A stretch of DNA of 64,000 bases, from positions 219,478 to 283,477 of the forward strand of contig JAHAKD010000001.1 in assembly GCA_018371855.1 (NCBI GenBank). Direction: 5' to 3'. This DNA is from Clostridium sp. Lineage in GTDB: Bacteria > Bacillota > Clostridia > TANB77 > CAG-508. How positions within the stretch are numbered: position 1 is the stretch's first letter; every line of letters begins with the position of its first letter. The notes below the pieces were generated by a model. That model had not been told where the DNA came from, did no database searches, and saw nothing but the letters and a program-made list of their open reading frames with translations. A program made the position numbers and the translations under genes. Shown one piece after another: positions 5,937 through 63,154 of this stretch.

Positions 5937-6340
5937 AAGAAAACGATTTTATAAGGATTAGTTGGAGTGGAGAAATAGGACAAGTAGTAAAAGTTTTAAA
6001 AAATAATTGGTACAAAGTGAAATTTCCAGGATATACATATTTAAGAAAAATTAAAATAGATGAACATGACTTTAGGATATTACAAAGTAGTAGTTTGTTA
6101 GATATCTTAAAAATAGGTGATTTTGCTAATGGTTATAAAATTATTCATATTACTGGAACTTATGTAGAAGTTGAAAGTAGTAGAAATTACACATTATGTT
6201 TTGAAGAGCATGAAATAGAAGAAGTTTTGAGTAAAGAAAAATATGAATCTAATTTATTTAAGCCAAAATTTAAAGAAGTTTCGGATTTGTATTATTTGAC
6301 TGACAAAGAAAAAAATATAGTAAATAAAAGGAGAATCTGA
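5930..6340 (+). CDS. Hypothetical protein
   Basis: 136-aa ORF with RBS GGAGGA. Confidence 0.6.
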   Translation: MLKENDFIRISWSGEIGQVVKVLKNNWYKVKFPGYTYLRKIKIDEHDFRILQSSSLLDILKIGDFANGYKIIHITGTYVEVESSRNYTLCFEEHEIEEVLSKEKYESNLFKPKFKEVSDLYYLTDKEKNIVNKRRI

Positions 6341-6342
6341 TT

Positions 6343-6756
6343 ATGGATATAAAGAAGGCAAAAGAAAAAGAAGAAAATAAAATGAAAACAGAAAATCAAA
6401 AAGCAATAGAATATTTTAAAAGATTTACTAAATATACATGGCAATTAGCAAAAGACGAAGAAAGATTAAATGGAAAAACTATTTATCAGAAAGATTTAGA
6501 AAAAAGAACAAAATATTTTGAAACAATCTTAAGTCTTGTTAAAGATTATGAAAGGAAAAATAAATCTTTAATACATACAAATAAAAGTTATAAAGGTATT
6601 ATTAATAAATATAATGCGAATTTAAAAAATCTTTATAAAAAATATGAAAATGAATACAAAAAAGTAGAAAATTTAAGTCTATTAAATGCAAAAGATTTAG
6701 TGCTACAAGAAATAAGTTGTATGCTTGATGACATAAAAGAGATAAATAAAAAATAA
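6343..6756 (+). CDS. Hypothetical coiled-coil protein
   Basis: 137-aa ORF with RBS AAGGAGA, 2 nt after the previous stop. Confidence 0.6.
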   Translation: MDIKKAKEKEENKMKTENQKAIEYFKRFTKYTWQLAKDEERLNGKTIYQKDLEKRTKYFETILSLVKDYERKNKSLIHTNKSYKGIINKYNANLKNLYKKYENEYKKVENLSLLNAKDLVLQEISCMLDDIKEINKK

Positions 6757-6770
6757 GGAGAAAAAATAAA

Positions 6771-7565
6771 ATGAGTATTGGAGAAAAGATTAAATATTTA
6801 AGAGAAAAAAGCAATTTAAGTCAAAGGCAATTATCAATATTATTAAATGTTGAGCCAGCAACAGTATCAAGATATGAATTAAATATTAGAGTACCAAATA
6901 TAAAAATTGTAAAACAATTAGCAATGATATTTAATGTTACAACAGATTATTTATTAGGTATTGAATCTACAGTAGAAGAGTTTCCTACAATAGAAGATTT
7001 TATAGAAAAATATAAAGAAAATAATGAATTATATTTTAATCTCTATATAGAAATAACAAATGGAAATCATGAAAAGGCAAGAAAACTTTATGATGAATGT
7101 ATAAAAAGAAAAATAATAAATAAAGAAAATTCATCATGTAGCACGTATGAAAATTTTATCAATAATGGATATGGCAACTATTTTAGTAACTATAGAATGT
7201 TTTGTGATGACATATTTAAAAAAGAGCATAACGGTGGATATAGTTATGCTATTCAAGAAATAATAGCTGATAGTAAAACAAAAGAAAAATATATTAAATT
7301 TCTAAAAAAGCAAAAAGATAAAAAAATGAAAGATATAGAAAATCTAAAGATAGAAGATTATGAAGAAGATTTTAAACAATTTAAAGAAAATGTTAAAAAC
7401 ATATATCTTTTGGAAAAAGAATTTAATGGAAAAATAAATTTATTAAAATATAAAAATGCTCAAATTGAACATAAATACCACGAATATACAACTAATTCAT
7501 ATAATGAACATATATTTGAAAAATATTTTATAGAAAGAATTAAAAATAATGAAGATTACATATAG
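6771..7565 (+). CDS. XRE-family HTH regulator with a long C-terminal domain
   Basis: IGEKIKYLREKSNLSQRQLSILLNVEPATVSRYE...TTDYLLG. Confidence 0.7.
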   Translation: MSIGEKIKYLREKSNLSQRQLSILLNVEPATVSRYELNIRVPNIKIVKQLAMIFNVTTDYLLGIESTVEEFPTIEDFIEKYKENNELYFNLYIEITNGNHEKARKLYDECIKRKIINKENSSCSTYENFINNGYGNYFSNYRMFCDDIFKKEHNGGYSYAIQEIIADSKTKEKYIKFLKKQKDKKMKDIENLKIEDYEEDFKQFKENVKNIYLLEKEFNGKINLLKYKNAQIEHKYHEYTTNSYNEHIFEKYFIERIKNNEDYI

Positions 7566-7842
7566 AGAAATTATAAAAAAATTGGGATTTAAAAATTTTA
7601 TTTTATATTATCTAATAAGATATTTAGAAATTTTAATAAATTTACCATACAAAATATTAAAACTGATAATTGAAATTTTTTATACAGTATTTGACTTGTT
7701 AGATAGCTTATTTTACAAAAGAAACTTAATAGTAATATCCAATATAAGTAAAAGAGCAAATAGCTTTAGAATCAAGTGTCAAAATATATTAAACGGAGGA
7801 AAAAGTAATGAAACAAATAATATTAGAAAAAGATCTAAATAA
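7549..7842 (+). CDS. Hypothetical protein
   Basis: 97-aa ORF overlapping both neighbours. No clear RBS. Confidence 0.35.
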   Translation: MKITYREIIKKLGFKNFILYYLIRYLEILINLPYKILKLIIEIFYTVFDLLDSLFYKRNLIVISNISKRANSFRIKCQNILNGGKSNETNNIRKRSK

Positions 7843-8872
7843 TTTAAATGAAGCAATAGATAAATTAAATGATGAATTTGAAACCGTTTACAAAGATAAA
7901 AGTGTTTTCGAGAAAAATAAAATTTTAGATATAAAATTTCTAATTAATCAAGTAAGAATAGATTTGCAAGATGAAAATATGCAAACTTTAAGCTATATAT
8001 TAGATAGAAATTCAAAACTAGAATTAATAACTTTTAAAGGAAAAAGAGAAAAAGATGTTTTTTATTTTAATATAGATAATTCAATTATTATTAAACAAGG
8101 AGAATTTTTAGTTTTATTTTTAAATGCAGATTTTTCAAGTGATAATTTGGCAGATAATACATTTTATAATCACTTTAATGAAGAAATAAGAAATATATTA
8201 AAGCAATTTAATACTAGAACAGAATTATTAGAGTTTCAGCATAAATTAAAAAATTGCATTACTTTTGTATTTAAATATGAAACATATGCTAAAAGCTATG
8301 ATAATAAATTTAAAGAATATATAAAAAATAATCTATATGATTCTATTTCTAATGAAAGTTCTAAAATTTCTATTTTGTTGGATAAAGAATTATATGAATT
8401 ACATAATGATTATAACAAATTCAATAAAATGCTAACAAAAGAATTTGGTTATATACAGGATATATATGGACTAACTTCTATCAGTCAATTATTATATATT
8501 ATGTTAAAAACTTTTACTCTATTTAGTAGTTTGCCAATTAGGAAATGTCAGAATTGTGGTAACTTTTTTATGGCTCAAAATAGAAAAGATGAATTATATT
8601 GTGGTAACATATATATGGATACAGGTAAAACTTGTAAACAAATTGGAGCAATGGAAAAATATGTACATAGCTTAGAAAAAGAACCTATTATAGCAGTATA
8701 TAAAAATATGAGAAAAAGAAAATATATGAAGTTTAAAAGAAACCCTGATAAAAAGGAATTAGAAATAAAATTTGAAGAATGGGATAAAAAGTCTAAAATT
8801 GAATTTGAAAAATATAAAAAACATGAAATAACAACAGAAGAATTTGAGAATTGGTTAAATCAAAATTATTAA
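7808..8872 (+). CDS. Hypothetical protein with C-terminal Cys cluster
   Basis: 354-aa ORF with RBS GGAGGA. Contains CQNCGNFF...YCGN...CKQIG, a putative zinc ribbon. Confidence 0.6.
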   Translation: MKQIILEKDLNNLNEAIDKLNDEFETVYKDKSVFEKNKILDIKFLINQVRIDLQDENMQTLSYILDRNSKLELITFKGKREKDVFYFNIDNSIIIKQGEFLVLFLNADFSSDNLADNTFYNHFNEEIRNILKQFNTRTELLEFQHKLKNCITFVFKYETYAKSYDNKFKEYIKNNLYDSISNESSKISILLDKELYELHNDYNKFNKMLTKEFGYIQDIYGLTSISQLLYIMLKTFTLFSSLPIRKCQNCGNFFMAQNRKDELYCGNIYMDTGKTCKQIGAMEKYVHSLEKEPIIAVYKNMRKRKYMKFKRNPDKKELEIKFEEWDKKSKIEFEKYKKHEITTEEFENWLNQNY

Positions 8873-9314: not shown

Positions 9315-9441
9315 TAGTAAACGCAGGATAAACGCACCGTGTCGTGCGTGGAAACAACTAGAGGGGCAAGCCCTCTACTATAATGTATAAACTTTAAATA
9401 TGCCGTGTATTTAATGCTTAAAATGTTTATAAGGGAACATT
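9315..9441 (+). repeat. Left copy of ~127-bp imperfect inverted repeat (oriT-like, two hairpins)
   Basis: AAACGCAGGATAAACGCACCGTGTCGTGCGT and CTAGAGGGGCAAGCCCTCTACTATAATGT are identical to the reverse complement of 13194-13321. Hairpins ACGCAC-N6-GTGCGT and TAGAGGG-N5-CCCTCTA. Confidence 0.8.
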
Positions 9442-9458
9442 CAAAGGAGGAAAAATTT

Positions 9459-11576
9459 ATGGGAAAAATTTTAATTATTGCAGAAAAAAATAGTATGGCT
9501 AGAGATATTGTTTCAGCTATAGGAGGTTGTTCTTACAACAAAAAAGAAAGCTATTACGAAAATAATAAGTATATTGTAATGAGCTTACTAGGACATGTTA
9601 TGACATTGTATGATATGGAAGATTATGATGAAAAGTTAAAAGCTTGGGATTTAGATTATTTACCATTCTTTCCACCAAAATGGAAATTAAAAGTAAAAAA
9701 AGAAGCTTATTTAAAACAAAAATACAATTTAGCTCAAAAACTAATAACATCTAAAGATGTAGATGAAATAATTAATGCAGGAGATCCAGATACAGAAGGA
9801 GAAGTCCTTGTAAATGAGGTAGTCTATTCGGTGTTTGAGGGTAAACATATACAAAAACCTGTAAAAAGAATTTGGATAAAAGACCATGTAGCAAGAACAA
9901 TTTTACAAGAATTAAAATATGCAAGAGATATAAAAAATACTAATAACGTATATCAAGAAGGATTAGCAAGAAGCCACATAGACTGGCTATATGGTATAAA
10001 TTTAACAAGATATGTTACTATAATGGCTAATGCTAATACAACATTTAACACGGGTAGAGTAATTATTCCAGCTGTTAAATATGTATATGATAGAGATTTA
10101 GAAATAGAAAATTTTAAGCCTAAAAAATACTATGTTGTAGTACCAACAATTACAAAAGATAATAAAGATATTAAACTGAATTTTAGTGATTTAAAATTTG
10201 ATACAAAAGAAGAAGCAGAAAGTAGCTTAGGAAGCTTAAAAAATGGAAAAATAAAAGTAGTAGAAATAGAAAAACAAGAAAAGAAAAAAGAGCCTAAAAA
10301 ACTATTTTCTCTATCTACATTACAAGTCTACATGTCAAAGAAATTTAAGTATAGTCCAGATGATACTTTAAATACAGTTCAAAAATTATACGAAGCAGGA
10401 TATTTAACATACCCAAGAACTAATTCAGAATACATGACAGAAGCAGAAATTACTAAAGCAGAAAATATTATAAAAGCATTAAATAATAAAGGATTTACAG
10501 ATGTAGAAATAAAAAAGACAAAGAAGATTTTTGATGACTCTAAAATTGATAGCCATAGTGCTATTACTCCTACAGAGAAAATAGCAGATTTAAATAATTT
10601 GTCTGGAAAAGAAAAAGAACTATATGAAGTTGTACGAAATCGATTTTTAGCAAACTTTGTTAAAGAAGAATGTAAATTAGATGTAACTAAAATAACTTTT
10701 GAATTTGGAAATTATAAATGTAATTTAACAGGAACAATAATAAAACAATTAGGATATTTAAAATATGAAAATGATTTAAATGAAAAGGATTTACCAAAAT
10801 TTGAAGAAGAAGAAATGTTTACCCCTAAACATTTAGATTTAGAAGAAAAAGTAACAACTCCTACTGGAAAAGTTACAGAAGCAGAATTAATACAATTCTT
10901 CAATAAGCCATTTAAAAATTTTGATAAAGAAGAAACAGAAGATGATGAATTAGATGATACAGAAGATTATAAGAAATTATTAAAAGGTATTGAAATTGGT
11001 ACAGAAGCAACTAGAGCTTCTACAATAAAAAAAATAATAGATATTTATTATATTTCAAAAGATAAAAATGGAAAATTATCAATTACAGATAAAGGAAGAG
11101 CTTTTATAGAGATACTTAAAAAATTGAATATTAATTTATGGAAAGAAAAAACTGTAGAATTATCTCAAAAACTAAAAGAAGTACATAATTCAAAAACAAC
11201 TGTAGATGAAGTAGAAAAAGAAGCAAAAGATGAAATTAAAAATATTATAAATCAAAAAGTAGAAAATGTAGCAGTTTCTAATTTAAATATAAATAATTCC
11301 AATAATAAAAATACTAACAAAGAAATTGGAATATGTCCTTTATGTGGTAAAAATGTTATTGCTTTAAAAGGAAAATATGGAACTTTTTATAAATGTTCTA
11401 ATTGTGATTTTAAAATTAGTGGTAAAATAGCAGGGAAAACAATTACGCAATCAATCGTTAAAGAATTATTAAAAAATGGAGAAACAAAAAATATAGATGG
11501 ATTCATCTCCAAAAATGGTAAAGAGTTTGCAGGTAAACTTTGTTTAAATAATAATAAAATTGAATTTAAATTTTAA
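9459..11576 (+). CDS. topB: Type IA DNA topoisomerase (Topo III-like) with C-terminal zinc ribbon
   Basis: TOPRIM motifs ILIIAEKNSMARDI and DPDTEGE. Active-site region GYLTYPRTNSEY. CPLCGKNV...CSNCDF. Start ATG 9459 lies 8 nt after AAGGAGGA. Confidence 0.85.
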   Translation: MGKILIIAEKNSMARDIVSAIGGCSYNKKESYYENNKYIVMSLLGHVMTLYDMEDYDEKLKAWDLDYLPFFPPKWKLKVKKEAYLKQKYNLAQKLITSKDVDEIINAGDPDTEGEVLVNEVVYSVFEGKHIQKPVKRIWIKDHVARTILQELKYARDIKNTNNVYQEGLARSHIDWLYGINLTRYVTIMANANTTFNTGRVIIPAVKYVYDRDLEIENFKPKKYYVVVPTITKDNKDIKLNFSDLKFDTKEEAESSLGSLKNGKIKVVEIEKQEKKKEPKKLFSLSTLQVYMSKKFKYSPDDTLNTVQKLYEAGYLTYPRTNSEYMTEAEITKAENIIKALNNKGFTDVEIKKTKKIFDDSKIDSHSAITPTEKIADLNNLSGKEKELYEVVRNRFLANFVKEECKLDVTKITFEFGNYKCNLTGTIIKQLGYLKYENDLNEKDLPKFEEEEMFTPKHLDLEEKVTTPTGKVTEAELIQFFNKPFKNFDKEETEDDELDDTEDYKKLLKGIEIGTEATRASTIKKIIDIYYISKDKNGKLSITDKGRAFIEILKKLNINLWKEKTVELSQKLKEVHNSKTTVDEVEKEAKDEIKNIINQKVENVAVSNLNINNSNNKNTNKEIGICPLCGKNVIALKGKYGTFYKCSNCDFKISGKIAGKTITQSIVKELLKNGETKNIDGFISKNGKEFAGKLCLNNNKIEFKF

Positions 11577-11589
11577 ATTTTAAAAAAAG

Positions 11590-11622
11590 AAGATTTATAC
11601 TAATATTTTAAATCTTTTTTTT
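11590..11622 (+). terminator. Rho-independent terminator after topB
   Basis: AAGATTTA-N11-TAAATCTT followed by a T-run. Confidence 0.6.
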
Positions 11623-11953
11623 ATATGTTAAATTATTCATTTTTTAGATTATAAAAAGAAAAATAAACTTTTAGATATTGTAGAATATATATCTAAAAAA
11701 ATATAAAATTTTAAAGACAAAAAATAATTTTTGTCTTTTTTTGTGCTTATTTTTTAAAAAATTTATAATGTTTATAGGTAAACACTATAATTCTAATAAG
11801 ATTAAATTCATTTTTAAATTAATAATCTAGTAATATAATTCATCAACTATTTTTTAAAAATGGCTTAGAATTAATTTTCAAAAGCCATTTTTCATTTCTT
11901 TTTTTGAAAATTCAATAAAGATAATTTTCATATAAAAAAAAATTTAAATATAA

Positions 11954-12009
11954 AATGCAATATTTTTGAAATATTTTTAACGAAAATTACGCTTTTTTCC
12001 TTTTATAAT
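11954..12009 (+). promoter_or_regulatory. Conserved promoter cassette, subtype II (P1, upstream of parB)
   Basis: AATGCAATATTTTTGAAATATTTTTAACGAAAATTACG...TATAAT. Near-identical to 17203-17258 and 45821-45876. Confidence 0.55.
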
Positions 12010-12044
12010 TTTTATAAATAAAAAAACAAGGAGGAATGATTAGT

Positions 12045-13184
12045 ATGGAAAACATAAAAAATGGAACACCAATAAAAAATAATCCTAGAGGAACTTTTAT
12101 TCCATTGATAAGAAATAATCTTCAAAGATTACAAATTGCAATGGACGAAGCTAAAAAATTTGTTGATGAAGGATTAAGTTATAATGAAGTTTTAAAAAAG
12201 GTAGATTCAAGAGTTTTATTTGTTGAAGATATTGACAAATTATTTGAAGGAAAAAGTAAAGAAGGTAATCAAAAAACAAACATTCAAGATGAAAATTATG
12301 AAAATTTAGTAGAAGAGAATAGAGAGGAATTGCCTTTTGAAAATGAAATAATTGAAGAAGAATCTATCAATACAGAAGAAAAAGGCAATATGGAGGAAAT
12401 GTTTATAGGTAAACATTCGGAAGAAAATAATAATTTTGAAGAAATTGATATTAACAATATATATGCAAATGAAGAACAGGCAAGAAAAGAATTTAATGAA
12501 TCTGAAATAAATGAATTAGCAAATTCTATTAAACGCTATGGATTACTTAGCCCTATCATTGTAGCCAAAACAGGAGATAATCACTATATGATAGTTGCTG
12601 GAGAAAGAAGATGGAGAGCTTGTAAATCTTTAAATTTGGATAAAATAAAATGTCAAATAATAAATAATGAAGAAGAAGATTTAGATTTTATATCTTTAAT
12701 AGAAAATTTTCAAAGAAAAGATCTAAATCCAATAGAAAAAGCAGTTGCATTAAATAATGTTATGAGCAAATATGAACTAACGCAAGAAGAATTAGCTGAA
12801 AAATTGGGAAAAGCTAGAAGTACAGTAACAAATATTTTAAGAATTTTGGATTTAGATAGTAGAGTTTTAGATTTACTTAAAGAAAAAAAGCTTACCTATA
12901 AACATTGCAAAACTTTATTATCAATAAAAGATCAAGAAAAACAGTATCAAAAAGCCTTAGAATTAATAGAAAATGATGTATCTTCTACCAAAGCCGAGGA
13001 AGAAATAAAACAAGAGGAAGAAAAGGAAAATTTACCACCAATATATATGGAAATAGAGCAAAAATGTCAAAATATTTTTGGTGAAAATCTTAAAATTCAA
13101 GCCAAACCTAAATCAAAAACTGTATCTTTTAAATTTAAAACTGATGAAGAATTAGAAAAATTTTTAAATTTATTAAAAAAATAG
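12045..13184 (+). CDS. parB: ParB/Spo0J-family partition protein with long acidic N-terminal extension
   Basis: ELANSIKRYGLLSPIIVAKTGDNHYMIVAGERRWRACKSL is the ParB box. HTH QEELAEKLGKARSTVTNILR. ATG 12045 lies 9 nt after GGAGGA. Confidence 0.85.
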   Translation: MENIKNGTPIKNNPRGTFIPLIRNNLQRLQIAMDEAKKFVDEGLSYNEVLKKVDSRVLFVEDIDKLFEGKSKEGNQKTNIQDENYENLVEENREELPFENEIIEEESINTEEKGNMEEMFIGKHSEENNNFEEIDINNIYANEEQARKEFNESEINELANSIKRYGLLSPIIVAKTGDNHYMIVAGERRWRACKSLNLDKIKCQIINNEEEDLDFISLIENFQRKDLNPIEKAVALNNVMSKYELTQEELAEKLGKARSTVTNILRILDLDSRVLDLLKEKKLTYKHCKTLLSIKDQEKQYQKALELIENDVSSTKAEEEIKQEEEKENLPPIYMEIEQKCQNIFGENLKIQAKPKSKTVSFKFKTDEELEKFLNLLKK

Positions 13185-13193
13185 CTAATACAA

Positions 13194-13321
13194 AATGTTC
13201 CCTTATAAACATTTTGAGCAGTAAAAACAATGTGCTTTTTTAAGTTTTACATTATAGTAGAGGGCTTGCCCCTCTAGATGTTCATACGCACGACACGGTG
13301 CGTTTATCCTGCGTTTAACTA
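13194..13321 (-). repeat. Right copy of ~127-bp inverted repeat; candidate oriT next to the relaxase operon
   Basis: Reverse complement matches 9315-9441, apart from an 8-nt variable block and a divergent middle segment. Confidence 0.8.
13305..13312 (+). other. Candidate nic site TATCCTG|C
   Basis: Matches the IncP/Ti-type nick-region consensus YATCCTG|Y. The nick position is 8 nt 3' of hairpin ACGCAC-N6-GTGCGT and ~45 nt upstream of the RHH accessory gene. Confidence 0.4.
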
Positions 13322-13355: not shown

Positions 13356-13829
13356 ATGGAAGAGAAAAAAGAACAAAAAGTAACTAAATATAAAAAATCT
13401 AAAGCAAAGCAAAAAACCTTTTATATTTCAGATAAATTAAATAAGACATTAATAAATTACCAATCAGAAAAACAATATACATCTTTTTCTGAAACAATGA
13501 ACAATATTCTAAAGGAATATTTTAGCGTGCAAGCTAATAAAGACAATATTACTATGATTACGGAAATTTTAAGAAATGTAATAAGACAAGAATTAAATAG
13601 TAAATTTGAAAGACAAATTGCATTAGAAGTAAAAGGTCTAAAAAATAATTTGTCGAACTCTTATTTACAGGCAAAAATACTGTCAGTTCTATTTAATTCA
13701 GATGATGATAAAGAATTTATGAGAAATGCAATTAAGGAAGCAAACGCAATAGGTTATAAAGCTATTAAAAATTATGATATAAAAACTGACTTTGAAAAAT
13801 TAGCAAATTTGGATAAAGGAGAAAATTAA
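13356..13829 (+). CDS. Ribbon-helix-helix relaxosome accessory-like protein
   Basis: ATG 13356 after GGGAGGCAAAAATATA. KTFYISDKLNKTLINYQSEKQYTSFSETMNNILKEYF is an RHH-like pattern. Located immediately upstream of the relaxase. Confidence 0.5.
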   Translation: MEEKKEQKVTKYKKSKAKQKTFYISDKLNKTLINYQSEKQYTSFSETMNNILKEYFSVQANKDNITMITEILRNVIRQELNSKFERQIALEVKGLKNNLSNSYLQAKILSVLFNSDDDKEFMRNAIKEANAIGYKAIKNYDIKTDFEKLANLDKGEN

Positions 13830-13831
13830 AA

Positions 13832-14008
13832 ATGATTTTTTGTAGTTTTTGTGGAGATAAAATAGAACCATTAAATATTTTTTATCATGATAAGAGAAAT
13901 AATAAAAACTATTGTGAGATATGTTTAGATACATATATTGCACAAGACAAGTTAAAAGTTATAAATGAAAATGGTGAAAAATTAGAAAGAAGTGTTGCTA
14001 ATGAATAA
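13832..14008 (+). CDS. Small zinc-ribbon protein (58 aa)
   Basis: CSFCGDK...CEICLD (two CxxC pairs). Tightly packed between the RHH and relaxase genes. Confidence 0.4.
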   Translation: MIFCSFCGDKIEPLNIFYHDKRNNKNYCEICLDTYIAQDKLKVINENGEKLERSVANE

Positions 14009-15713
14009 TGCTCCAGTTGTATTTAAATGGATTAATAAACAAGAAATATATAGTAAAAGAACTAATCAAGCAAAAGATAATAGATTACAAGCCCATATTG
14101 ATAGATGTCATATTGATTATATTGCTACAAAAGCAGAAGCTGTTAAAAACGAATATGGTGAACATGCGTTATTTGGAACTATCTATGATAAAAAAGGTAT
14201 TCCTCTTGAAGTAGAAAAAATGTCTTTAAGTGATATTAGAAAAAGAGTAGGGGAGATTACCCAAAATGATGGTGATGTTTTCAAAACAATTATAAGTTTA
14301 GATGGTGATGACGCATTAGAGCAACAATATAATACTAGAGAAAAATGGAAAGAACTCGTTGAACATAAAATAGAGGAAATAAGAAAATCTGTCAAACCAG
14401 AAATTCCAGTAGAAAATTTTGAGTATGCAGTTTCTTTTCATGCAAAAGAAGGACACCCTCATGTTCATATTGATTTTTGGAATAATAAAGATTATGAGAA
14501 TACAACTAAAAAGCCATTTATAAATTATAAAAATATTAGAAAAGAATTTGTTAAAGAAATATTTTGTAATAAATTACAAGAATTGTATAACGTAAAAAAT
14601 GTTTCAAAAAAAGAAATTTCAATTTTAGCAAAAGATGAATTAGAAAGATATAAAAAAGATTTAATAAATGCCTTAAATTTGAAAAATCTTGAACTAAATA
14701 TAGTAGATACTACTAAAGAAGAAAAATTAATAAAAGATATTTCTAATAAATTGAAAGTCGGACAAAAAATATATTTATATGATAAAGATTATCCTAATAA
14801 TTTCACAGAAATTAAAAAAGTTAGGAAATGGTACGAAAGCAAGAAATTTAATAATGTAAAGAAGTGGTATAAAGATAAACTTGAATTTAAAAATAATGGA
14901 AAAAAAGGGATCTTATATAAAGAAGATACTTTATCAGATACAGCTTCTTTCTTAAAAGATTTTAATGAAATAGGAATTGCAAAAAGTAGTTTAGAACTTG
15001 AAACGATAATAAAAAATACAACAGAAGAAGATTTAAAAATAAGTAATCTTTTAAAAGAAGTTATGCCAGAAGAGATACCAGATAGAATTTTAGATTATAG
15101 ATTTAAAGAAGAAAATTTTGAAATAATATCAAGCAAACTTCAGGATTTAAAAAATATCACGAATAATTTTGAAAAAGGATTCAAGTATCAATATCAAACA
15201 CCAGAAGTAAAGCAAGCAATAGATGATATTTCTAAATTAATTTTAAATACTTCGATGGAATGTAAAGAAATGTTTTATGAATATATTAATTCCGAAATAG
15301 AAGCAAGTAAATATTTAGCAGATATAGAAAATTCTACTGACTACGAAAGAGTAAAACAAAGAGCTAAAGATACTATGTATTCTAAGATAGGGAATCAAAT
15401 TTTGCAATTTATAAAAAATACTAAAAGCGAAGCAAGAGAAGAAAATTGGAAAAAAAGGCAAGAAGAATATGAAAATAAAAAAGCAGAATATGAAATAAAT
15501 AGGAAACAAAGTCAGATTGATTATAAAAAGAGAAATGAAACGAAGAATTTAATTAAATCAGTATTTTCTACATTAGACGAAGAAAATACTGTAAATCAAG
15601 CAAGAAATACTAGACTTAAAGAAAGTTTTAAAAATATGTCAAAAGAAGCTAAAAGAGAATGGATTAAAAAAATGCGTAATTCATCTGGTTTTGACTGGGG
15701 ATTTGATAGGTAA
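14001..15713 (+). CDS. Conjugative relaxase (HUH-type, MOBP/MobL-like)
   Basis: N-terminal Tyr motif HIDYIATKAEAV. His cluster FHAKEGHPHVHIDFWN. Sits next to the oriT-like repeat. Long coiled-coil C-terminus. An alternative GTG start is at 13992. Confidence 0.6.
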   Translation: MNNAPVVFKWINKQEIYSKRTNQAKDNRLQAHIDRCHIDYIATKAEAVKNEYGEHALFGTIYDKKGIPLEVEKMSLSDIRKRVGEITQNDGDVFKTIISLDGDDALEQQYNTREKWKELVEHKIEEIRKSVKPEIPVENFEYAVSFHAKEGHPHVHIDFWNNKDYENTTKKPFINYKNIRKEFVKEIFCNKLQELYNVKNVSKKEISILAKDELERYKKDLINALNLKNLELNIVDTTKEEKLIKDISNKLKVGQKIYLYDKDYPNNFTEIKKVRKWYESKKFNNVKKWYKDKLEFKNNGKKGILYKEDTLSDTASFLKDFNEIGIAKSSLELETIIKNTTEEDLKISNLLKEVMPEEIPDRILDYRFKEENFEIISSKLQDLKNITNNFEKGFKYQYQTPEVKQAIDDISKLILNTSMECKEMFYEYINSEIEASKYLADIENSTDYERVKQRAKDTMYSKIGNQILQFIKNTKSEAREENWKKRQEEYENKKAEYEINRKQSQIDYKKRNETKNLIKSVFSTLDEENTVNQARNTRLKESFKNMSKEAKREWIKKMRNSSGFDWGFDR

Positions 15714-19986: not shown

Positions 19987-19996
19987 AAATATAGTA

Positions 19997-20101
19997 ATAA
20001 ATGGTATGTCGCAACCTATGCTTGCGACTAATAAATGGGCTAGTGAATAAATGGTATGTCGCAACCTATGCTTGCGACTGATAAATGGGCTAGTGAATAA
20101 A
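19997..20101 (+). ncRNA. Type III antitoxin RNA: 2.1 tandem copies of a 50-nt repeat
   Basis: Period is exactly 50 nt (20001 vs 20051) with one mismatch (20031 A vs 20081 G). Each unit holds the hairpin GTCGCAA-N7-TTGCGAC. It lies between a promoter and a terminator, directly upstream of a ToxN-like gene. Confidence 0.7.
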
Positions 20102-20110
20102 TAGTTTTTT

Positions 20111-20160: not shown

Positions 20161-20928
20161 ATGAATATACAACAAGGATATTTTTATTTCATTTCAGATT
20201 TATATTTTGATAGAGTACAAGATAAAGAATTGTTACAAAATAAAGAAAGTGGAACCAAAAGACCAGCTTATTATTGTTTCAAAGATAGTAATAATAATAG
20301 AATCTTTTGGTTTGTTCCTATTTCTAGTAGAGTTGAAAAATATAAAAAAATATATAATCATAAAATACAAAAACAAAAGAATAAAGGAATAAAAAAGCCA
20401 AAAGTTGATACTATCGTTTTTGGTAAAATTTCTGGAAAAGAAAATGTATTTTTAATACAAAACATGTTTCCTGTAATTGATAAATATATTATTGATACTT
20501 TTCTTAGAAAAAATGCTTTAGTTTCAATAGATGATAAAACAAAAAAAGAGATAAACCTAAAAGCTAATACAGTATTATCTTTAGTAAACAAAGGTATTAA
20601 AAGTATGGTATTTCCAGATATATTAAAATTGAAAGGAATTATGAAAGATGAAATTTTAAAACAACTTGAAATTGAAGATATATTTAACAATAAAAAACTT
20701 ACATTTATAGATGAATTTAAAAACATTATTAGTAATGCAATTAATAAAGAAGATATATCTTTATACCTACAATACATAAAAGATTCCAATATATTATCAG
20801 AATATACTAATATTTTAAATTCTAGTGATGATATTACTAAAATAAAAACAGACATAATATTAAAAACAGACGAATTGTTTAATGTAGAAGAAAACTCTGA
20901 CGAAGAAACAAATGAAGATGAAGTTTAA
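20161..20928 (+). CDS. toxN: Type III toxin (ToxN/AbiQ/TenpN-superfamily endoRNase-like) with ~85-aa C-terminal extension ending in the acidic tail TNEDEV
   Basis: FYFISDLYFDRVQDKELLQNKESGTKRPAYYCF...WFVPISSRVEKYKKIY resembles the ToxN/AbiQ/TenpN N-terminal pattern. The repeat-terminator-toxin architecture also fits. Confidence 0.65.
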   Translation: MNIQQGYFYFISDLYFDRVQDKELLQNKESGTKRPAYYCFKDSNNNRIFWFVPISSRVEKYKKIYNHKIQKQKNKGIKKPKVDTIVFGKISGKENVFLIQNMFPVIDKYIIDTFLRKNALVSIDDKTKKEINLKANTVLSLVNKGIKSMVFPDILKLKGIMKDEILKQLEIEDIFNNKKLTFIDEFKNIISNAINKEDISLYLQYIKDSNILSEYTNILNSSDDITKIKTDIILKTDELFNVEENSDEETNEDEV

Positions 20929-30673: not shown

Positions 30674-30707
30674 ATCAATATAATTTTATTAAGATGGGAG
30701 GAGAAAA

Positions 30708-31331
30708 ATGGGTAAGTTCAAATTATTTAGTCGTTCTAATAAAAATAAATCAGGGCAAAAAGAAGAAATATCAGCAAATACATTTTTAAATATTAGAACT
30801 GTGCAAGATGGAAAAATCTATACAATAGACAATAAAATTTTAGGAATTTTAAGAATATATCCAAAAAATTGTAACTTAATGAGCCAAGATGAAAGAAAAG
30901 CACATGCAAGAGTTCTAACCTCTAATATGGCTACAGAACTAAAGCCATTTAAACTGTATTTTGCAAATCGACCAGTAGATTTACAAAGAAATCAAGACTA
31001 TCAGGCTATGCTTATGGATAATGAAGCGAATTCTACTAAGTTCTATCTTTTAAATCAAAGAATGAAGTCGTTTGGTATGTTGTCAGCAACAGGCAAAGCA
31101 CAAGAATCTGAAATTTACTTAATCATTTGGGAAACAAAACTAGATGACCATTCAGCAGTAGAAATTGATAAAAGATTAAATGAAATGAAAAGAAACTTAT
31201 CAAATGCAACATATAAAACAGAAATTTTAAATGATAAGCAAATAATTCAAGTCATTAATGGCTTTACTAATCCAATTACGGCATATTTAGAAGATCAAGA
31301 TTATATGGATAATGTAGTTCAAATAAAATAA
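30708..31331 (+). CDS. T4SS-associated protein resembling a stand-alone VirB4 N-terminal domain (tentative)
   Basis: RBS GGGAGGAG. LNIRTVQDGKIYTIDNKILGILRIYPKNCNLMSQDE...FKLYFANRPVDL resembles the N-terminal region of Gram-positive VirB4 proteins. Confidence 0.35.
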   Translation: MGKFKLFSRSNKNKSGQKEEISANTFLNIRTVQDGKIYTIDNKILGILRIYPKNCNLMSQDERKAHARVLTSNMATELKPFKLYFANRPVDLQRNQDYQAMLMDNEANSTKFYLLNQRMKSFGMLSATGKAQESEIYLIIWETKLDDHSAVEIDKRLNEMKRNLSNATYKTEILNDKQIIQVINGFTNPITAYLEDQDYMDNVVQIK

Positions 31332-35857: not shown

Positions 35858-36517
35858 ATGGATAAATTAAATATAAAAGTAGAATTAAAAAAAATAAACA
35901 AGGAAGATTCAAACTTAAAAGGATTTGCTGATATAACGTTAGCAGGAGTTACAATAAAAGATGTTGCAGTAAAAGAAATTCCTACAAAAGAAGGAACAAT
36001 AGTAGCTTTTGATACACCTAATATTGATAAATACCAAGATAAAGAAGGAAATATGAAATACATAAAAAGTGTAAGCATAAATACTAAAAAGGATAACTTA
36101 ATACCAGAGATAAGAAAAGCTTTATTAGAAGCCTTAACATCAAACGAAACTAATGAATATGGAAAGACAGTTATAAATCATGAAACAAATATTGAATATG
36201 ATAAAGATTATGTGAAATCTTATATTAGACCATTATCTTTTGAAAATAATCCTTATATAAAAGCAACTGGTAGAATACTAGTAGGTGGTGTTTTAGCATT
36301 AAATAATGTACGATTAAATGAAGGCGTTTCAAAGGAAGGTAATGAATTTCAATCAATTTCTGTTCCAGAAAAAAAGATTGATCAAGAATATAAACCTTTA
36401 GTATATCTTGATAAAGATTTAAGAGATAAAATAAAAGATAATTTAGTTTCAGAATATAATAAAGAAACTAAGGAACAAGAAGCAAATAATGAAGAAGCAG
36501 AAGAAGATGAGATTTAA
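35858..36517 (+). CDS. SpoVG-like N-terminal domain protein with extension and acidic tail (EAEEDEI)
   Basis: ATG 35858 after AAGGAGGAAACTAAT. LNIKVELKKINKEDSNLKGFADITLAGVTIKDVAVKE is SpoVG-fold-like. Confidence 0.5.
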   Translation: MDKLNIKVELKKINKEDSNLKGFADITLAGVTIKDVAVKEIPTKEGTIVAFDTPNIDKYQDKEGNMKYIKSVSINTKKDNLIPEIRKALLEALTSNETNEYGKTVINHETNIEYDKDYVKSYIRPLSFENNPYIKATGRILVGGVLALNNVRLNEGVSKEGNEFQSISVPEKKIDQEYKPLVYLDKDLRDKIKDNLVSEYNKETKEQEANNEEAEEDEI

Positions 36518-59568: not shown

Positions 59569-60552
59569 ATGAAAAATACAGATATTAAAAATATTCCAGA
59601 TATTTTAAAATATTTTTTAAGTTACTTAAAAGCTCATAATTTTTCAGATGGTACAATTACTGTTTATAGGGATCATGTATATGAATTTTTATCGTTTTAT
59701 AAAGATTATAAAGATTTAGATATTGAATTAAAAAATATTGGAATATTCATTGTCTTACAAATTGAAACAGCAGATATTAGAGCTTATTTAGTTCATCTAA
59801 GTTATGATTCAAAAAACAATTCGAGTACACGAGAAAATAAACTTAATGCTATATCTTCATTCTTTAGTTGGGTACTTTCTACTAATCCAAATTTAAAAAA
59901 AGAAGAAAATCCTACTTATGGAATTAATGATATAACAAGAATAAACAAATTGCCGAAATATTTAAATTTAGATAATGCACATAAGATTCAATCCATTTTT
60001 GATAATAATAATTGTAGAAATCCTATTAGAAATAATATGATAATAACTTTATTTTTAGCTACAGGAATAAGACTTTCTGAATTACACAATTTAAATATTG
60101 AAGATGTTATATTAGATGAAAACTGTCTTTTTATCAAAAAAGGTAAAGGAAAAAAAGATAGATACGCTTATTATAATGATAATTGCAAAAAACAATTAGA
60201 AGAATATCTAAGATATAGAAATAAAATTGAAGTGGATTCAAATGCACTATTTTTAAGCGAAAGAGGTGAAAGACTAGCCAGAAGGACTATCCAATATATA
60301 ATAGAAAAAGCTTATGAACTTATGGGATTAAATGATTTTGACTTCTCTGTTCATACATTAAGACATACATTTGCTACATTAACTTATATATATGTAAAAC
60401 AAGATGTACTTTTACTTAAAGAAATGTTAGGTCATGCTAGAATAACTTCAACTGAAATTTATACTCATGTTGCAGATAAACAAATTGAAAATGCTATGAA
60501 TAGTAATCCTTTAAGTAATTTTGATGTAACAAAATATAACAAAACAGCATAG
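59569..60552 (+). CDS. Tyrosine recombinase (XerC/XerD-like) 1
   Basis: ATGIRLSEL (Arg), HTLRHTFAT (His-x-x-Arg) and LGHARITSTEIYTHV (His, Tyr). Confidence 0.85.
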   Translation: MKNTDIKNIPDILKYFLSYLKAHNFSDGTITVYRDHVYEFLSFYKDYKDLDIELKNIGIFIVLQIETADIRAYLVHLSYDSKNNSSTRENKLNAISSFFSWVLSTNPNLKKEENPTYGINDITRINKLPKYLNLDNAHKIQSIFDNNNCRNPIRNNMIITLFLATGIRLSELHNLNIEDVILDENCLFIKKGKGKKDRYAYYNDNCKKQLEEYLRYRNKIEVDSNALFLSERGERLARRTIQYIIEKAYELMGLNDFDFSVHTLRHTFATLTYIYVKQDVLLLKEMLGHARITSTEIYTHVADKQIENAMNSNPLSNFDVTKYNKTA

Positions 60553-60569
60553 AAGGAGATGATTTTTAA

Positions 60570-60830
60570 ATGAATAATGAAAATAAAATTCACAGAAACA
60601 CTATAGAATTACTGGATTGTCAAGTCAATCTAATTTTAAAAAGTTTAGGATTTTATTTAAATACTTTTGAAAATTTTTCTTTTTCTAATAATGCTAATAT
60701 GAATAAAGAATTAGAATTACAAACAAGTATAATTCGTGATACATATAATCAAATACTTAACGAGTGCAAAGATGGAATACAAAATCCAGCAATAGATACT
60801 TATTATAAAATAACAGAAAAAACAGCTTAA
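60570..60830 (+). CDS. Small protein between the two recombinases
   Basis: 86 aa with RBS AAGGAGA. Confidence 0.55.
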   Translation: MNNENKIHRNTIELLDCQVNLILKSLGFYLNTFENFSFSNNANMNKELELQTSIIRDTYNQILNECKDGIQNPAIDTYYKITEKTA

Positions 60831-60846
60831 AATAGGAGGGAGAGAT

Positions 60847-61833
60847 ATGTATAGAAGTAAGGAAATTAAAATTAATTTTGATAAAAATCCAGATTTTCTT
60901 AATGAAATGTTAAATTACTATATTGTAGTCTTAAATAGATCTCCCTCTTCAATGAAGGAAGAAAATATTGTTTTAAGAAATTTCTTAAAATATATTGCAG
61001 TAAAATTTAAAATTAAAGAAGAAAATACAGATATGGATATTTCTAATCTTAGTATAGATATTTTAAAAAAGGTAAGGAAGGTACATATTGAAAATTATTT
61101 ATCTTATTTAAGTACAATAAATAAATCTAGTACTATATCTAAAAAAGTCTGTTGTATTAGACATCTGTTTTATTATTTTAGTGAAAAGAATAAAATATTA
61201 AAAGAAAATCCTACTAAAGATTTAAAATGTTTAAGAAGGGAAAAGAGCCTTCCTAAATATTTATCCTTAGAAGAAAGTAAAAAAGTATTAACAGATACTT
61301 ATAATAACGAGGAAGATAAATATTATCTTAGAAATTATTGTATTGTTACTTTATTTTTAAATTTAGGAATAAGAGTAGCAGAATTAGTAAGTATTGATAT
61401 TAACGATATAAATGAAAATAAAATTACAATATTAGGAAAGGGAAGAGAGGAAAGAGTTTTATACTTAAATGAGATAAGTTTAAAAGCAATCGAAGAATAT
61501 CTAAAAAATAGGATTAAGCCAGAATTAATAATACCAGATGAGCAACACTCTGAAAGAGCATTATTTTTAAGTTCAAGAAAAACTAGAATCTCTATAAGAG
61601 CAGTACAAGTAATAATAGAAAATGCTTTTAAAGAAGCTGGATTAGATTATAAAAATCTTTCTGTTCATAAATTAAGACATACATGTGCAACTTTACTATA
61701 TCTATATGGAAATATAGATATAAGGACAATACAAAAAGTATTAGGACATGATTATATAGAAACTACAGAAATATATACTCATATTAACAACAAATACATA
61801 AAAGAATTGATTAGGAATAGTCCGATAGTATAA
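60847..61833 (+). CDS. Tyrosine recombinase (XerC/XerD-like) 2
   Basis: LGIRVAEL, HKLRHTCAT and LGHDYIETTEIYTHI. Confidence 0.85.
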   Translation: MYRSKEIKINFDKNPDFLNEMLNYYIVVLNRSPSSMKEENIVLRNFLKYIAVKFKIKEENTDMDISNLSIDILKKVRKVHIENYLSYLSTINKSSTISKKVCCIRHLFYYFSEKNKILKENPTKDLKCLRREKSLPKYLSLEESKKVLTDTYNNEEDKYYLRNYCIVTLFLNLGIRVAELVSIDINDINENKITILGKGREERVLYLNEISLKAIEEYLKNRIKPELIIPDEQHSERALFLSSRKTRISIRAVQVIIENAFKEAGLDYKNLSVHKLRHTCATLLYLYGNIDIRTIQKVLGHDYIETTEIYTHINNKYIKELIRNSPIV

Positions 61834-61919
61834 CTTATCATCTGTTATTAATTACTAAAAAGTTAAAAAACTTGAAAGTATTGAAATATATGTATTTTAT
61901 AAAAAAGTAGTTAAAAATT

Positions 61920-61943
61920 GACGCACGAGAATCAATTTTAAGC
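61920..61943 (+). repeat. GC-rich motif GACGCACGAGAATCAATTTTAAGC, copy 2
   Basis: Forms an inverted pair with 62684-62707, bracketing the right junction. Confidence 0.7.
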
Positions 61944-62066
61944 CATTTTTATTTTTCAGTAATATAGTTTTATTTCTAAAAAAGTCTTAAAATAGTATAA
62001 AATAAGCTTTTTAAGAAATTATAGAAAAATTACTCAAAAGTTTTTGTAAAAAATTCTAAAAAATAC

Positions 62067-62259: not shown

Positions 62260-62683
62260 AAGGCGTAGGGGTAAAATATAAAGATTATGTTCTGGTACTC
62301 CTTGATACATCTGGCTTACAGCTATTTATGTACTTCTTCTTTTTCTCTAAATATTGCTTATTTTATGTGTTTTTATTATTTCTTATTATTTTATATTATT
62401 CATTATTATTTGTATTAAATTTGTAATTATATATAATTTGTTATCCTTAATATTTAAACCTTTTAAAATCAATTTTAAAGCTTTTTAATTTTATTATTAT
62501 ATAACTTGTTATCTAATTATTTTTTTATTATCTTATTTATTATTTTATCTGAAGAAATTTTTTATTACTTTTATATTATTTGTATTTTTTTAGAAAATTT
62601 TATCCAATTTGCTCAAAGTCGCTAAAACCCTCTATTTGCCGTATTTTTAAGACAACAAACTATATGTCTAAAATATAAAAACG

Positions 62684-62707
62684 GCTTAAAATCGATTCTC
62701 GTGCGTC
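62684..62707 (-). repeat. GC-rich motif, copy 3 (inverted; one A-to-G difference)
   Basis: The reverse complement reads GACGCACGAGAATCGATTTTAAGC. Confidence 0.7.
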
Positions 62708-63154
62708 GTATTTTTGACACTTTTTAGCCATTTTTTGAAAGTATTGATTTATAGGCATTTATAAGTATTTTTATATATTTTATCTATATTAGATATAACA
62801 TTTTATATATTCTAAACATATAACTTGTTAGGTTTATTATTAAAATGTCTTAAAAACGATTTTAAAGCTTAATAAATTATAATTTTATTTGCATAATCTA
62901 AGTAGCTTTTTATAATTTAATTTTCATATTACTAAATCTATTTTACAATTTATAATTTTAGTTTTCTTATTATAATGTATCTTAATTTTAATTCAAATTA
63001 GATTTTAAACAATTTATTTAATCAAAATGATAAATTACATATTATAAATATAAATTCATTTTAAAACTAATTTTTAGTTATTGATTTTTAATTTGAACTG
63101 TTCAAATGTTCGTTTTTGAGATTTTAGTGTTTGGTATAAAAATTTTATAATTTA

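Follow-up and report, generated by a model that had tools for sequence, protein, structure and literature searches.

We analysed a 64-kb stretch of the genome of a Clostridium sp. (assembly GCA_018371855.1, contig JAHAKD010000001.1, positions 219,478-283,477 of the forward strand), hereafter the window, which carries a conjugative element of Gram-positive type. Upstream of the relaxase gene of this element, parB lies between two inverted copies, or arms, of a sequence resembling an origin of transfer (oriT). On sequence grounds, this divergent oriT-like pair around parB is conserved throughout a family of related elements; dual inverted oriTs were known before mainly from IncX plasmids. On balance, we read each arm as a copy of the oriT of the element, which would be served by a MOBL/MOBP-like relaxase. 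The anatomy that suggests it consists of hairpins 5' of a core matching the MOBP consensus, adjoining the accessory and relaxase genes.

Anatomy of the two arms

The arms and their hairpins are placed as follows.

9318-9441, - strand: left arm, oriT-like; its core is the complement of 9323-9330, with the presumed nick at 9324/9323 on the - strand
9332-9349, - strand: left-arm hairpin H1
9359-9377, - strand: left-arm hairpin H2
9422-9441, - strand: left-arm hairpin H3
13194-13317, + strand: right arm, oriT-like; core TATCCTG|C at 13305-13312, with the presumed nick at 13311|13312
13194-13213, + strand: right-arm hairpin H3
13258-13276, + strand: right-arm hairpin H2 (loop CTTGC)
13286-13303, + strand: right-arm hairpin H1

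A repeat search finds the inverted repeat 9318-9441 / 13194-13317, i.e. 124 nucleotides (nt), 85% complementary, with 3752 nt in between. Self-BLAST gives 9315-9441 / 13194-13321 at 88% over 130 columns, the very limits proposed in a preliminary description made from the letters alone. That description also held the outer 31 nt and a 29-nt block to be identical in both copies, and they are exactly so: the 31-mer ACGCACGACACGGTGCGTTTATCCTGCGTTT occurs at 9319-9349 (-) and 13286-13316 (+), where none is expected by chance, and the block CTAGAGGGGCAAGCCCTCTACTATAATGT (29/30 nt) is the same in both arms. A 23-nt inner block is shared as well, and the linkers between the identical blocks have diverged. 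The arms had been singled out as being among the most GC-rich non-coding DNA of the window; they are in fact its two GC-richest 60-nt stretches (0.55 and 0.53 vs a mean of 0.24). The left one stops 17 nt 5' of the topB start codon. The right one begins 10 nt past the parB stop codon and ends 38 nt before the accessory open reading frame (ORF).

Each arm holds three hairpins, not two as first described. The third, H3 (AATGTT-N8-AACATT), occupies the inner end of each arm; the others are H2 (TAGAGGG-CTTGC-CCCTCTA) and H1 (ACGCAC-N6-GTGCGT, with stem halves at 13286-13291 / 13298-13303 in the right arm). Folded as single-stranded DNA, the right arm reaches -20.4 kcal/mol (z -4.4) and the left arm -17.0 (z -3.1), with the three hairpins present in each. 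One T after H1 comes the octamer TATCCTGC, at 13305-13312 (+) in the right arm and as the complement of 9323-9330 in the left. These coordinates match those given earlier for ACGCAC-N6-GTGCGT followed by TATCCTG|C in the right copy, with a nick 8 nt from the hairpin, and for the same motif on the - strand of the left copy. The presumed cut after G13311 lies 8 nt from H1 and 45 nt before the ATG at 13356. The proposal of an oriT-like region ~45 nt upstream of the accessory and relaxase genes stands for its anatomy, but the ribbon-helix-helix (RHH) label given to the accessory protein has no profile support.

The octamer YATCCTGY alone is not significant in the window, where 4 copies are found and 3.7 expected; what makes it significant is its context. 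The third TATCCTGC lies at 10395-10402 (-), has no hairpin context and is the reverse complement of the codons for EAGYLTYPRT, the active-site motif of the type IA topoisomerase encoded by topB; it is therefore a coding coincidence. Reading the arms as intrinsic terminators was abandoned too, there being no T-run after H2 on the coding side, and so was reading them as promoters: promoter-like matches are as frequent in shuffled sequences, and the TATAAT of the arm is not conserved in other clades. The arms matched no known RNA family in Rfam, and no similar DNA was found among plasmid records.

Conservation of the pair in related elements

Relatives were collected from relaxase homologues and from two scans of species-representative genomes, plus one metagenome scan that added loci. 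They are Clostridia metagenome-assembled genomes from human, rodent, rabbit and ruminant guts. Both arms are present in 17 loci, and in 3 further cases the pair is divided between adjacent loci, giving ~20 elements (we use locus numbers where they have to be told apart). All loci with at least 35% relaxase identity and sufficient upstream DNA have an inverted-repeat pair of 90-166 nt located 5' of the relaxase gene. The orientation is constant, left core on the - strand and right core on the + strand, and the number of copies is two in each element. An alignment of 30 arms shows TCCTGC and the GCTTG of the H2 loop to be invariant; the distance from GCTTG to TCCTG is 48-49 nt throughout, and H1 and T(A/T)TCCTG are separated by 0-1 nt in all arms. 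The core variant in L014 and L016 is TTTCCTGC. An extra short hairpin, AATTTC-N-GAAATT, lies 3' of the core in both arms of L011 (8540-8565), L012, L013, L020 and L023.

The interior between the arms spans 1.3-5.6 kb in these relatives, and parB is the only gene always found there, the others being variable. topB is optional and does not lie in the interior of L014 and L016. Hence, the gene bracketed by the repeats is parB, rather than the topB-parB pair of the preliminary description. That description had also envisaged an invertible or excisable topB-parB module. We searched all loci for inverted interiors by tblastn, using topB, parB, the relaxase and its accessory protein as queries, and found 0 in ~20 related assemblies, a result that disfavours this idea. 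As for other interior contents, L001 has additional small ORFs between topB and parB (6300-8050), and the interior of the L011 clade encodes a response-regulator receiver protein (L011 5761-7030).

Covariation and selection on both arms

RNAalifold run on a MAFFT alignment recovered only part of H2 due to misplaced gaps, and anchored hairpin tables with shuffles were used instead. They reveal 12 distinct stems for H1 and 6 for H2, all of them Watson-Crick; H1 is represented for example by ACGCAC/GTGCGT, GTCCA/TGGAC, ACATAGC/GCTATGT, AGGAAAGA/TCTTTCCT and GAGATACT/AGTATCTC. The fraction of shuffles matching the observed H1 stem is 0-0.0135 in 20 of the 21 distinct arms, and 0.059 in the remaining one (L005_L). 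For H2, 95.6% of the cells are paired (40-63% in slid controls), 3 of the 7 pairs are altered on both sides, and none of 500 shuffles is as good. H3 covaries as well.

The two arms of an element can also be compared with each other. In L011, L013, L020 and L023 the right-arm H1 is AGGAAAGA/TCTTTCCT and the left-arm H1 is AGAAAAAC/GTTTTTCT. Both types are conserved between genomes and each is a perfect hairpin. A compensatory change from G-C to A-T is found in H2 of L002, in one arm only. Since the arms of the L011 clade differ in their H1 stems yet each pairs, both copies are under selection. Within the clade of the window, the core (0.93) and H3 (0.91) are more similar between the two arms of an element than between orthologous arms, and the linker shows 0.67 within the element vs 0.77 between orthologous arms.

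The relaxase and its genomic context

The genes associated with the pair are the following.

9459-11576, + strand: topB, type IA topoisomerase III (Pfam Topoisom_bac 1.2e-92; NCBIfam topB)
12036-13184, + strand: parB (ParB_N 2.7e-25, HTH_ParB 1.7e-29)
13356-13829, + strand: ORF of 157 amino acids immediately 5' of the relaxase gene, candidate relaxosome accessory protein
13992-15713, + strand: relaxase of 573 amino acids, MOBL/MOBP-like

An AT-rich spacer separates topB from parB between the arms; the G+C content is ~24% and the genes all lie on the + strand. The 157-amino-acid ORF is conserved in both position and sequence, with 32-38% identity in distant relatives, and its RHH assignment finds no support in Pfam or NCBIfam even at E = 10. 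The relaxase matches NCBIfam MobP3 at 5.7e-33 with 114.8 bits, below the cut-off of 150, and Pfam Relaxase at 0.0016, equally below cut-off. Among its homologues, 13 of 18 match PF18555 MobL (best 4e-13), a family with no match in the window protein itself. The residues H150, H157 and H159, which form a 3-His motif, and Y43 are invariant in the homologues. For a structural model of the N-terminal 220 residues (predicted local distance difference test, pLDDT, 79.5), the top PDB match is MobA of R1162 (2ns6), with a probability of 0.72 and E 0.11, which is not significant. A fold search with the whole protein was uninformative and a sequence search of the PDB gave no matches. Using tblastn against 72,556 plasmids, the relaxase found matches only in records of Bacillus, Exiguobacterium and Subdoligranulum, at 23% identity. 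The nearest plasmid with an annotated 'MobP3', pBMB67, has no parB/topB cassette 5' of its relaxase gene.

The genes 3' of the relaxase gene encode a sortase, a type IV coupling protein, a type IV secretion system (T4SS) pilin, a VirB4-like ATPase, an M23 peptidase, thioester/SpaA adhesins and two tyrosine recombinases. The element is probably integrative, because its relatives lie on contigs as long as 612 kb. A search for anti-defence genes to the left of the left arm, in the putative leading region, yielded Xre-type regulators only.

Several other features of the window can be mentioned here. A 50-nt tandem repeat (19992-20102, 2.2 copies, 96% matches) lies immediately 5' of a gene for a CptIN-family type III toxin (20161-20928, NCBIfam 1e-49), the layout expected where such a toxin is paired with an RNA antitoxin; both lie within the transfer operon. 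The adjacent tyrosine recombinase genes (59569-61833) are followed by an 83-nt inverted repeat (61902-61983 / 62644-62725, 83%), and past ~62 kb the strand bias and GC skew shift; the element may end in this region, which could alternatively be a recombination site. The window also contains a HipA_C kinase-like gene (50237-51169), and in distant relatives such a gene lies just 5' of the left arm (L005 2508-3596, L007 3314-4387).

Palindromes around parB

Copies of the H3-type palindrome also occur between the arms.

10814-10833: extra H3-type palindrome AATGTT-N8-AACATT, exact
11767-11786: extra H3-type palindrome with one mismatch, flanked by -35 TTTATA and -10 TATAAT 5' of parB
12398-12417: extra H3-type palindrome, exact

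All four exact copies of the palindrome in the window fall within 9.4-13.2 kb, and the copy at 11767, with its one mismatch, makes a fifth. When one mismatch is allowed, the window has 10 matches vs 1.6 expected. L009 has the same pattern of interior repeats with a palindrome of its own, and interior copies are absent in several clades. One might speculate from this distribution that the H3-type palindromes are parS or operator sites, for an orphan ParB or for the accessory protein. No ParA/CbiA-type protein was found among the window ORFs scanned; a parA may lie outside the window. An exact look-up of the ParB of the window returned nothing on record.

Further copies of the module

The anatomy of the arms can be summarised as the descriptor GCTTG-N36/37-T(A/T)TCCTG. 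In a scan of other Clostridia genomes for the H2 pattern, in 8-kb blocks, at least 118 blocks matched and at least 59 had the full descriptor. Among the matches listed, many copies lie within ~1 kb of contig ends. There are also apparent solo copies (L141 1097-1144, L107 1612-1660, L067 156-204, L164 2472-2519, and L109 2325-2373 and 6762-6809), which adjoin housekeeping genes such as aspS, a tRNA U5-methyltransferase gene or RibD_C/GNAT/FtsW genes. The L164 copy belongs to an island that lacks a relaxase but encodes an AEP-TOTE primase-helicase and a large serine recombinase, and the two copies of L109 are on the same strand.

Downstream of some solo copies, the last ~45 codons of a relaxase gene survive as a decayed remnant (L162 2263-2524, L114 4130-4391, L168 2349-2551, L089 6095-6283). 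These remnants match the L016 relaxase with E values of 1e-8 to 1e-14 and contain stops and frameshifts. In L168 and L089 they begin no more than ~10 nt past ATCCTG|C; in L114 and L162 the distance from the core is 71-77 nt. To judge from such junctions, the remnants may be the natural footprint of deletions joined at the nick. No relaxase-tail remnant, which could have been a clue to the origin of the duplication, lies next to the left arm, and the 3' end of the relaxase gene contains no cryptic third oriT.

A model of transfer and its alternatives

The anatomy of the arms, their conservation and covariation and the selection on both copies are seen in the sequences; nicking, its exact position, the activity of both arms in vivo and whatever ParB contributes are inferred, and transfer might proceed as follows. 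The relaxase, probably with the 157-amino-acid protein and possibly with ParB, would recognise the hairpin array H3-H2-H1, cut one strand in T(A/T)TCCTG|C, 8 nt 3' of H1, and remain bound to the 5' end. The cores are at the outer ends of the arms and point outwards; the two copies would therefore direct opposite transfers. From the right copy the + strand would be exported; the first genes to enter would be those for the accessory protein, the relaxase and the T4SS, and transfer would run co-directionally with transcription. From the left copy the - strand, i.e. the template strand of all genes, would be exported and the upstream genes would enter first. In either case parB (and topB) would enter last. 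The earlier suggestion that either strand could be transferred follows from this geometry, and it would match the proposal made for R6K as reported in PMC2262945. The copies may be inverted because same-strand oriT pairs undergo relaxase-mediated deletion of the intervening DNA, so that stable pairs would be of the opposite-strand kind only.

Two extensions of this model can be envisaged. One is a dedicated bidirectional origin built around an orphan ParB, which we regard as rather unlikely: both arms would fire in vivo, ParB loaded at the H3-type palindromes of the arms and of the interior would organise the two relaxosomes or connect them, and parB would always be last out. If true, either strand of the element would be exported, or, when it is integrated, the chromosomal DNA flanking it on either side. 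The other is the possibility that the arms anneal in the transferred single strand into a stem of ~124 bp, recreating double-stranded sites for protein binding or priming at the trailing end.

Several observations weigh against taking the arms as two oriTs nicked at the core. The relaxase is weakly assignable, its Pfam and NCBIfam matches being below cut-off and its fold match to MobA not significant. GCTTG, invariant in the H2 loop, is the same as the nic core GCTTG|C listed for Tn1549, pRJ6 and pRS01. The only mapped MOBL nic, GCCGG|CTTTT of pLS20, is unrelated and on the template strand, and the relaxase-proximal presumed nick is on the coding strand, opposite to IncX, RP4 and pLS20. Finally, selection on both arms is equally expected if one of them is a mere protein-binding site.

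Under this last scenario, a single arm would be a working oriT and the other a duplicate retained because the same proteins bind to it, without ever being productively nicked; it might be an operator coupling the expression of topB-parB to the relaxase operon, or a decoy or boundary site. We think that this is improbable, though the location of the arms lends it some appeal: the left one is immediately 5' of the ribosome-binding site of topB and the right one immediately 5' of the accessory-relaxase operon. An H3-type palindrome is found in the promoter-like site before parB too, and the arms of the L011 clade, at 75-80% identity and with different H1 stems, could have different roles. Yet, in all elements both arms keep T(A/T)TCCTGC and the 8-nt spacing unchanged, which speaks against a mere operator, since it would not need them, and the promoter-like TATAAT of the arm is not kept in other clades. 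It is distinctly unlikely that the arms are oriTs cut in the H2 loop, at GGGCTTG|CCCC, rather than at ATCCTG|C. GCTTG is invariant in 30 of 30 aligned arms and in at least 59 further copies, and GCTTG|C-type nics of Gram-positive elements are listed in the oriT tables reproduced in PMC7755788. However, the similarity between arms stops 6-7 nt after TCCTGC, and the foreign junction in the solo copies of L168 and L089, i.e. the relaxase-tail remnant, starts no more than ~10 nt past ATCCTG|C. HUH relaxases whose complexes have been solved are known to cut ~8 nt 3' of a hairpin and not in its loop, a geometry that TCCTGC fits exactly.

The remaining explanations put the oriT likeness in second place or do without it. 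The arms might mainly be loading or boundary sites of ParB in a centromere-like complex around parB. This would make sense of parB being the sole invariant interior gene and of three more H3 palindromes, one with a mismatch, occurring only in the 4-kb segment, as similarly seen in L009, and it would be in line with the binding of oriT regions or regulation of transfer genes by ParB-family and partner proteins (PMC12421886). But it accounts for H3 only, leaving aside the invariant core, H1 and H2; several clades have no interior palindromes, and there is no parA among the window ORFs scanned. We consider it very improbable. Still less credence can be given to the arms as recombination sites inverting or excising topB-parB, or as terminal repeats of a transposon-like cassette. 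In favour of this there is an inverted repeat around a 1.3-5.6 kb segment of variable content. Nevertheless, topB, parB, the accessory gene and the relaxase gene are co-oriented in all ~20 assemblies, no recombinase is found within or beside the segment, arm sequences change in step with the relaxase clade, and the segment is always located at the same place, 5' of the relaxase gene.

If the arms are oriTs nicked at the core, they provide a testable candidate oriT, with its nick and recognition hairpins, for a large uncharacterised conjugative family of gut and rumen Clostridia whose relaxase current profiles hardly recognise. Dual inverted oriTs would then extend to the Firmicutes, with opposite polarity and with another cargo, parB. 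The purpose of a second, opposed oriT is an old question that would become testable in a second, independent system. The descriptor, for its part, could serve to predict which DNA in microbiome data is mobilisable.

Comparison with known systems

In its core, the candidate oriT resembles the nick regions of RP4 and of the Ti border. The nick consensus of MOBP relaxases is (C/T)ATCCTG(C/T) (PMC3772185), and TATCCTGC, present in both arms, is identical to the RP4 nick octamer. As in RP4/Ti, an inverted repeat lies 5' of the core, and the presumed nick is ~8 nt away from it (H1 ends at 13303, nick after 13311). These systems have a single oriT and Gram-negative hosts, whereas the relaxase here is at best distantly MOBP-like and L014 and L016 use TTTCCTGC.

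Another system to compare is pLS20, of the MOBL type: MOBL is a Firmicutes relaxase family matched by most of the homologues (PF18555, 13/18), and in both cases the oriT, or candidate oriT, lies 5' of the accessory gene(s) and the relaxase gene. But the nic of pLS20, GCCGG|CTTTT, is at the start of an inverted repeat and on the template strand, whereas the core of the relaxase-proximal copy here is on the coding strand, and pLS20 has a single oriT copy and no parB cassette. The use of two oriTs by one relaxase within one integrative and conjugative element has a precedent in ICEclc, where nicking occurs at either of them (PMC10018362). ICEclc is proteobacterial with a MOBH-type TraI, and the comparison covers the number of oriTs. 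The interior of the pair recalls a ParABS module, with a ParB made of ParB_N and HTH domains and clustered palindromic sites that are candidate binding sites; it differs by having no partner ParA among the window ORFs scanned. The binding of oriT regions, or the control of transfer genes, by ParB-family and partner proteins is on record (PMC12421886).

The arrangement of the arms finds its best parallel in IncX plasmids, for which dual inverted oriTs were called a unique trait in 2012. R6K is described (Avila 1996, as cited in PMC2262945) as having two functional oriTs, proposed to let either strand transfer, and the tables of PMC7755788 list TATCCTGC as the nic of both IncX oriTs of pMAS2027. 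We checked pOLA52 (NC_010378), where the arms are at 30691-30800 / 36246-36355 (110 nt, 95%) with TATCCTGC at 30782 (+) and 36257 (-). Thus, both systems have two inverted oriT or oriT-like copies of ~110-125 nt, separated by 5.4 kb in pOLA52 and 3.75 kb here, both carry TATCCTGC in the two arms, and in both one copy adjoins the accessory and relaxase genes. Their differences are as clear. The cores of pOLA52 face inward from the inner ends of the arms, those of the window face outward from the outer ends; the arms of pOLA52 flank the replicon, each next to a ddp gene (ddp1, ddp3), whereas here parB, with or without topB, is inside. The spacing from hairpin to core is not the same either, and IncX has Enterobacteriaceae hosts and a TaxC relaxase, to which the relaxase of the window is unrelated by tblastn against plasmids.

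The preliminary description called a pair of opposed nic sites unusual. The two opposed copies are real, but the arrangement is known in IncX and is the rule on Staphylococcus plasmids with two oriT copies: these are always on opposite strands, and the relaxase deletes same-strand pairs (PMC4652767). The MOBMG plasmid pWBG749, like the cst-locus plasmids pCS1, pCP13 and pCLL, also has a multi-hairpin array (AR3, IR1-3) 5' of a short core (PMC4652767, PMC5770547). The minimal oriT of the pWBG749 family is ~126 bp and H3-H2-H1-core fit here within 124 nt; in both, the hairpin sequence varies, there with specificity, and the core is fixed. The core itself is CTTATGCTCTT in that family vs TTATCCTGC here. 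Moreover, the extra copies associated with pWBG749 are mimics on non-conjugative plasmids, often of another specificity, rather than a fixed cognate pair around parB within the conjugative element itself.

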